Virus record (IMG/VR): IMGVR_UViG_2671180903_000019
Coordinates: 1-5,316 of that record
Origin: a virus
Lineage: Duplodnaviria > Heunggongvirae > Uroviricota > Caudoviricetes
DNA: 5,316 bases
Direction: 5' to 3' (one strand)
Made by a program: the position numbers and the translations under genes. Position 1 is the first letter of the stretch. Each line of letters opens with the position of its first letter. Positions 222 to 413 of the stretch are shown here, piece by piece. The notes under the pieces are model-generated. The model did not search any database. It was not told where the DNA came from and saw nothing but the letters and a program-made list of their open reading frames with translations.

Positions 222-290
222 ATGGCGCTTTACACAATTGGTGAAGTGGCGTTGCTTTGTGATATTAACCCTGTCACGTTACGCGCGTGA
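222..290 (+). pseudogene. mlrA: 5' fragment of a MerR-family regulator gene (mlrA/yehV-like), interrupted after codon 22 by the prophage junction
   Basis: ATG at 222 follows GGTGAG 4 nt upstream and translates [22 protein letters not shown], then TGA at 288-290. This is a typical MerR N-terminal HTH start and matches my recollection of E. coli MlrA ([30 protein letters not shown]...). DNA after ~289 no longer encodes the expected WQRRYG continuation. Gene identity is from memory, not a search. Confidence 0.5.
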
Positions 291-413
291 CGCAACATTT
301 TTAAAAATCAACGAAGATCGTCCAGGAGCGCCGATTTTCAAGGGTTGGACAGATAATTCGTTTTCGATGTCGACGAACTTCGACGGATTTCGCCTATAAA
401 AAGTGTCCCATAC

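Follow-up and report, generated by a model that had tools for sequence, protein, structure and literature searches.

Why should a stretch of DNA catalogued as viral open with the start of a bacterial regulator gene that stops after 22 codons? The window analysed here is 5,316 nt long (positions 1 to 5,316 of the IMG/VR virus record IMGVR_UViG_2671180903_000019), and an earlier note, made from its letters alone, had proposed a prophage-host junction inside mlrA (yehV), a MerR-family regulator gene. Comparison with Escherichia coli genomes bears this out: positions 1-289 are E. coli chromosome, comprising the btsS/yehU-mlrA intergenic region and mlrA codons 1-22, and lambdoid prophage DNA lies beyond. 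Segment 222-300 almost certainly marks the attR-type end of a lambdoid prophage that occupies mlrA (yehV), with an integration of the Sp15/VT1-Sakai/CP-933V/BP-4795 type, the prophage being present as a defective remnant. This finding explains the 22-codon stub and names both the host locus and the prophage type. The mlrA junction itself is an already known, ordinary event, and the strain-specific part is the deleted remnant. Coordinates are collected in Table 1.

Table 1. Features of the window, with the evidence on which each assignment is based
Feature	Position	Strand	Evidence or remark
Host btsS(yehU)-mlrA intergenic region with mlrA upstream region and ribosome-binding site	1..221	+	100% identity to unoccupied SMS-3-5 locus
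mlrA′ stub, MlrA codons 1-22 plus TGA, last base of the stop phage-derived	222..290	+	ORF list; host has TGG
Attachment core, 21 bp, CCCTGTCACGTTACGCGCGTG, strand-exchange region	269..289	+	Common to attB, attR and attL
attR phage arm	290..525	+	93% mean column identity across E110019, VT1-Sakai and phi330
TG(T/C)CCCAT, four copies with 11-bp period, candidate arm-type integrase sites	404-447	+	Repeat scan
Promoter-like site (putative role): TTGACA, 18-nt spacer, AAAAAT	460-489		Upstream of dinI-like gene
LexA box (putative role): CTGTACATAACCACAG, pattern CTGT-N8-ACAG	495-510		Upstream of dinI-like gene
dinI-like prophage gene, 82 aa	526..774	+	Pfam DinI, E = 5.8e-15; RefSeq 'DinI-like family protein' in 98-3133 and E110019
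espV-like effector gene, 5′ fragment, ~174 codons, cut by deletion	979..1501	+	99.7% identity to 98-3133 up to ~1505
Deletion junction, espV-like gene (+) fused head-on to terL (-)	1501..1502	.	Three-way alignment
terL′, large terminase subunit, first 374 codons, ATPase domain only	1502..2624	-	Pfam TerL_ATPase; 553 aa in E110019
Small terminase subunit gene	2621..3184	-	Pfam Terminase_2; RefSeq homologue
HNH endonuclease gene	3473..3838	-	Pfam HNH; RefSeq
YlcI/YnfO (DUF3950) family gene	3880..4080	+	Pfam DUF3950, E = 4e-20; RefSeq
TonB_C-domain prophage gene	4212..4538	-	Pfam TonB_C; RefSeq
Hypothetical gene, 74 aa	4877-5101	-	RefSeq homologue
Rz-type lysis gene, 3′ part, runs off the window	5098-5316	-	Pfam Phage_lysis, E = 2e-22; RefSeq

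The host boundary and the mlrA stub

In strain SMS-3-5, whose locus is unoccupied, the last base of btsS immediately precedes the base corresponding to window position 1, and the start of mlrA corresponds to position 222. Comparison of the two sequences column by column gave perfect identity up to position 289 and background level thereafter. The base at 290 is A in the window and G in the host, converting TGG (Trp23) into TGA. The open reading frame of the stub is real, with the coordinates listed in Table 1, far beyond what chance would produce, and a purine-rich GGGTGAG sits 4-10 nt 5′ of its ATG. The earlier description of 22 intact MerR-regulator codons with a Shine-Dalgarno sequence and a stop at the point of divergence was thus recovered in full; the chromosomal gene starts with the sequence of the window, and host identity does not pass position 300. 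Megablast searches with window positions 1-700 returned a match in all 5,426 complete E. coli genomes, and wherever mlrA was annotated as intact, the aligned stretch was exactly positions 1-289 (99-100% identity, E = 2e-148).

Intact MlrA comprises, according to Pfam, a MerR_1 helix-turn-helix (residues 4-72), an MlrA_helical domain (81-155) and an MlrA_C domain (162-238). The copy in the window ends after residue 22, inside the helix-turn-helix, and does not encode the domain set of a functional MlrA (the whole N-terminal MerR helix-turn-helix, the helical domain and the C-terminal domain). In strains 98-3133 and E110019, RefSeq gives the mlrA stub the remark 'incomplete; missing C-terminus'.

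A 281-bp probe for the unoccupied site was unsplit in 4,944 of the 5,426 complete genomes, so that the site is interrupted in approximately 9% of them; the same junction with the same dinI arm was found in 460 of the 5,426. The mlrA/yehV site is a standard marker in Stx-phage insertion-site typing. The published forward primer A for the yehV right junction (AAGTGGCGTTGCTTTGTGAT) was located at window positions 244-263, and its phage-side partner, primer E, had no match anywhere in the window, even with three mismatches allowed. Because primer E is missing, the standard A/E junction PCR would probably miss the right junction here.

A scan of the junction also gave a terminator-like score at 272-301, just 3′ of the mlrA′ stop, where the core palindrome is followed by a phage-supplied T-run. 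The candidate intrinsic terminator created by the junction (hairpin 272-292 plus T-run) was rejected, since the hairpin formed by this palindrome is stronger at the unoccupied locus; the T-run is moreover offset by 4-5 nt from the stem, and we claim no function for the hairpin.

The attachment core and its phage arm

We aligned the window (attR) with the unoccupied site (attB) and with the integrase-side sequence (attL) of the atypical EPEC strain E110019. The sole stretch common to all three was the 21-bp CCCTGTCACGTTACGCGCGTG, of which the attL copy occupies positions 6014-6034 of the E110019 integrase-side sequence (NZ_CP035751.1). Window positions 270-289, that is, 20 of the 21 core bases, correspond to the 'attachment site of Enterobacteria phage VT1-Sakai' in the GenBank record of this Stx1 phage, which also labels the stub 'truncated protein of E. 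coli K12 YehV'. yehV is among the standard Stx-phage insertion sites (PMC8065619), and the earlier note had given yehV/mlrA as a known integration site of lambdoid and Stx phages in E. coli O157:H7. The occupation of mlrA by Sp15 has likewise been treated in work on prophage clusters (PMC8112680).

Within the core, GTCACG and CGTGAC flank the 7-bp spacer TTACGCG, forming an inverted repeat whose right half is completed by phage bases 290-291. By analogy with lambda Int, we infer that this repeat may represent two core-type Int sites around a 7-bp overlap. The junction had earlier been placed near 288-291. That interval stands as the right-hand limit of host identity but not as the crossover; strand exchange falls somewhere in the 269-289 core, and the edge of host identity is not necessarily the point at which it occurred. 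Site-specific recombination by a tyrosine integrase into the 21-bp core, within mlrA codons 16-23, would account for this arrangement.

The end of the prophage seen in the window is attR, the one distal to the integrase. The same arm is labelled 'attR' in the record of phage JLK-2012 and 'direct repeat due to prophage insertion' in that of YYZ-2008, and regenerated att sites of Sp15 have been amplified by PCR (PMC5931665). We additionally rebuilt attP from the int arm of E110019 and the arm of the window, and searched a phage collection with it. The sole full-length match was phi330, which aligned end to end at 90% and carries xis and tyrosine integrase genes; its core is duplicated in tandem. 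In this record (vB_EcoS_phi330, PV189401.1), deposited as a 'complete genome', positions 2731-2772 read CCCTGTCACGTTACGCGCGTG followed by CCTGTCACGTTACGCGCGTG, which is the att core twice in succession. The record looks like two prophage ends joined without removal of the duplicated core, and phi330 was rejected as a clean, independent proof of attP because the tandem copies look like pasted prophage ends. Several other phage records recovered in this search start or stop at the att site.

The four tandem repeats in the phage arm could, by analogy with lambda, serve as arm-type integrase sites. The arm of the window holds one extra 11-bp unit (ATGCCCCATTG) compared with E110019, VT1-Sakai and phi330. 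As in lambda, the system would comprise a tyrosine integrase whose gene neighbours that of an excisionase, a short core in which inverted half-sites enclose a 7-bp spacer, and repeated motifs in the arms. Lambda differs in its core sequence and in its target, which is the gal-bio intergenic region, whereas a protein-coding gene is used here; the tandem candidate repeats in the integrase-distal arm are also unlike lambda.

VT1-Sakai (Sp15) and CP-933V, the Stx1 prophages at yehV in O157:H7, share their host gene and 20-21-bp core with the window, and leave the same 22-codon yehV′ stub. The VT1-Sakai arm, with its SOS box and dinI-like gene, is homologous to that of the window at approximately 90% identity, and the promoter-like site and LexA box of the window have annotated counterparts in the VT1-Sakai record. 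Past dinI the two diverge: VT1-Sakai continues with ykgJ-like and tail-fibre genes, whereas the window continues with the espV-like gene and then the deletion. At the other end of the element, the 3′ end of int and the int-proximal att arm of BP-4795 (Stx1, nleA-carrying), Stx2a_1447 and Stx2a_WGPS2 are 99-100% identical to those of E110019, and these four therefore represent one integration module. The three phages are complete stx-carrying genomes, and the comparison covered their att and int region.

Prophage relatives and the internal deletion

The phage genes immediately inside the junction (dinI-like, terminase, HNH and Rz) belong to a lambdoid prophage whose relatives are found at the same locus. 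Window positions 1-1505 share 99.7% identity with the mlrA region of O157:H16 strain 98-3133. In that strain a DinI-like gene, a 418-aa hypothetical gene and nleA come after the stub, and the lambdoid prophage continues with genes for tail fibres, lysis, Q and recombination. In the same prophage, a second copy of window 779-1350 lies 3′ of nleA (positions 24583-25154, 95% identical); the espV upstream region and the 5′ part of the gene thus appear twice there, and the effector cargo region is in part duplicated. The espV-like gene encodes 402 aa in E110019 and is annotated as 'secretion protein EspV' in several RefSeq genomes, and its product had no match in a Pfam search.

E110019 (NZ_CP035751.1, 2,869,2xx-2,924,0xx) matches the window in its junction, arm, and dinI and espV genes, and its packaging and lysis genes are 96.6% identical to window 1501-5316. 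Both halves of the window lie within one complete lambdoid prophage of approximately 55 kb in this strain. Its order from the stub is dinI, the espV-like gene and nleA; tail fibres, tail and head; terminase, HNH and lysis genes; and Q, replication and immunity. The far end carries xis (xisR), the tyrosine integrase gene int, the core, the 3′ part of mlrA and yohO, and stx is not annotated between Q and the lysis cassette, where Shiga-toxin-converting phages carry it; for the source strain of the window this region falls past the contig end. E110019 retains 23.5 kb that are absent from the window. A duplicated core and the 3′ part of mlrA had been expected at the other prophage end; they are found in E110019, whereas the contig of the source strain stops in the lysis genes, within the prophage, with the core duplication and the state of int known from relatives alone.

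The junction between positions 1501 and 1502 lacks 23,515 bp that are present in E110019: the remainder of espV, nleA, the genes for tail, head and portal, and the terL 3′ end. The junction shows approximately 1 bp of microhomology, which is typical of illegitimate recombination. It was found in none of the 5,426 complete E. coli genomes, searched with both the whole window and the 1250-1750 segment. An exact 40-nt scan of GTDB representative genomes also gave no matches, as expected of a collection with one genome per species. At least two NCBI drafts, GCA_001283985.1 and GCA_001286345.2, carry the junction, and both encode precisely this truncated TerL; contig CXZF01000021.1 of the former ends in a sequence 100% identical to the window. 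The presence of truncated TerL in two draft assemblies indicates that the deletion is real and not a one-off assembly error. The window accordingly does not represent a complete inducible lambdoid prophage with a full set of packaging, head and tail genes, TerL itself being reduced to its ATPase domain. The prophage is, judging from its gene content, a defective remnant predicted to be unable to build virions, since everything from mid-espV to mid-terL has been removed.

Three other accounts of the junction were weighed against the one given above. A nonsense mutation alone, changing codon 23 of an otherwise continuous mlrA from TGG into TGA, would fit the single base difference at the divergence point (A versus G at 290), but it can be dismissed outright, because mlrA identity falls to background straight after 289 and a phage arm with a dinI-like gene follows, in the same place in 460 genomes. 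An assembly chimera of the mlrA 5′ end with phage DNA would be in keeping with the position of the window, which forms the final 5.3 kb of a draft contig terminating in repeated prophage sequence. This explanation is nevertheless extremely improbable, given that the junction recurs in 460 closed genomes, is annotated in GenBank phage and prophage records and falls exactly on the known att core, and that two or more separate assemblies contain the internal deletion junction. It is also very unlikely that the junction is real and the element a complete, inducible and possibly Stx-converting phage. Close relatives at the same site (VT1-Sakai, BP-4795 and Stx2a_1447) are functional Stx1 or Stx2 phages, and excision and replication of Sp15 have been reported (PMC5931665), yet in the window espV runs at codon ~174 into terL codon 374, 23.5 kb with the portal, capsid, tail and tail-fibre genes are gone, and only the ATPase domain is left of the large terminase.

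How the deletion arose is a separate matter, in which a decamer close to its junction deserves attention. The left 10 nt of the att core (269-278), CCCTGTCACG, recur in the same orientation at 1505-1514, 3 nt from the deletion junction, where 0.01 copies are expected per window; in the 57.5-kb prophage region of E110019 the decamer occurs at attR, attL and the terL site only, in one orientation throughout. Both observations would suit a deletion started by the phage integrase at a secondary site, an origin that we nonetheless regard as highly improbable. The decamer is native terL coding sequence (Arg-Asp-Arg-Glu), the remaining core bases are unmatched at the terL site, and the decamer has the crossover on its left, outside the would-be 7-bp overlap. 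The espV partner matches at 14 of 27 positions, which is unremarkable for approximately 45 positions tested, and the microhomology is of the size seen in illegitimate recombination. Because espV lacks a credible partner site and the crossover is not within the overlap, we rejected integrase as the main cause of the deletion, and the decamer near the junction is probably a coincidence. The fuller scenario, in which an integrase nick at a secondary terL site triggered the deletion, with loss of the morphogenesis genes and retention of the mlrA disruption and part of the cargo, is slightly less probable still; if true, it would be a route by which effector-carrying prophages are locked in place. 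Illegitimate recombination, the preferred origin, would have taken out the 23.5 kb from mid-espV to mid-terL in one deletion.

Downstream of the deletion, direct and inverted repeats based on CAGTTAACAT(T/G)T cluster at positions 3255-3383, between the HNH and small-terminase genes. These repeats are possible terminase-binding (cos-region) sites. HNH endonucleases of this type accompany the terminase in HK97-like packaging modules.

Consequences for MlrA

On this side of the prophage, mlrA keeps its promoter, ribosome-binding site and 22 codons, with the TGA completed by the first phage base. The other approximately 220 codons would have been moved to the far end of the prophage, separated from a promoter and a canonical start codon. 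As the break lies inside the MerR helix-turn-helix, MlrA, an activator of csgD and hence of curli and biofilm, is expected to be inactive while the prophage remains integrated. Published work supports the earlier suggestion that insertion here inactivates a regulator of curli and biofilm genes: prophage insertion in mlrA breaks the DNA-binding motif and abolishes curli and biofilm formation, excision restores native mlrA, and Sp15 is reported to excise and replicate (PMC5931665). Occupation of mlrA by prophages is a recognised reason for curli loss and poor biofilms in most O157:H7 and some other pathogenic strains. A curli-negative phenotype is likewise predicted for the source strain of the window unless the element excises. 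The capacity of the remnant to excise would depend on its int/xis end, which lies outside the window, and mlrA may stay split more stably with a deleted remnant than with an inducible phage.

In E110019, the remainder of mlrA lies approximately 55 kb away, behind int, and no ATG, GTG or TTG was found between the last in-frame stop and the core. This 3′ remnant is 9 bp (3 codons) shorter than the corresponding sequence of SMS-3-5. RefSeq annotates it (NZ_CP035751.1, 2924011-2924688) as 'HTH-type transcriptional regulator MlrA', 225 aa with an ATC start, and does not mark it as a pseudogene. Such an unflagged, promoter-less remnant is an annotation trap when mlrA integrity is scored.
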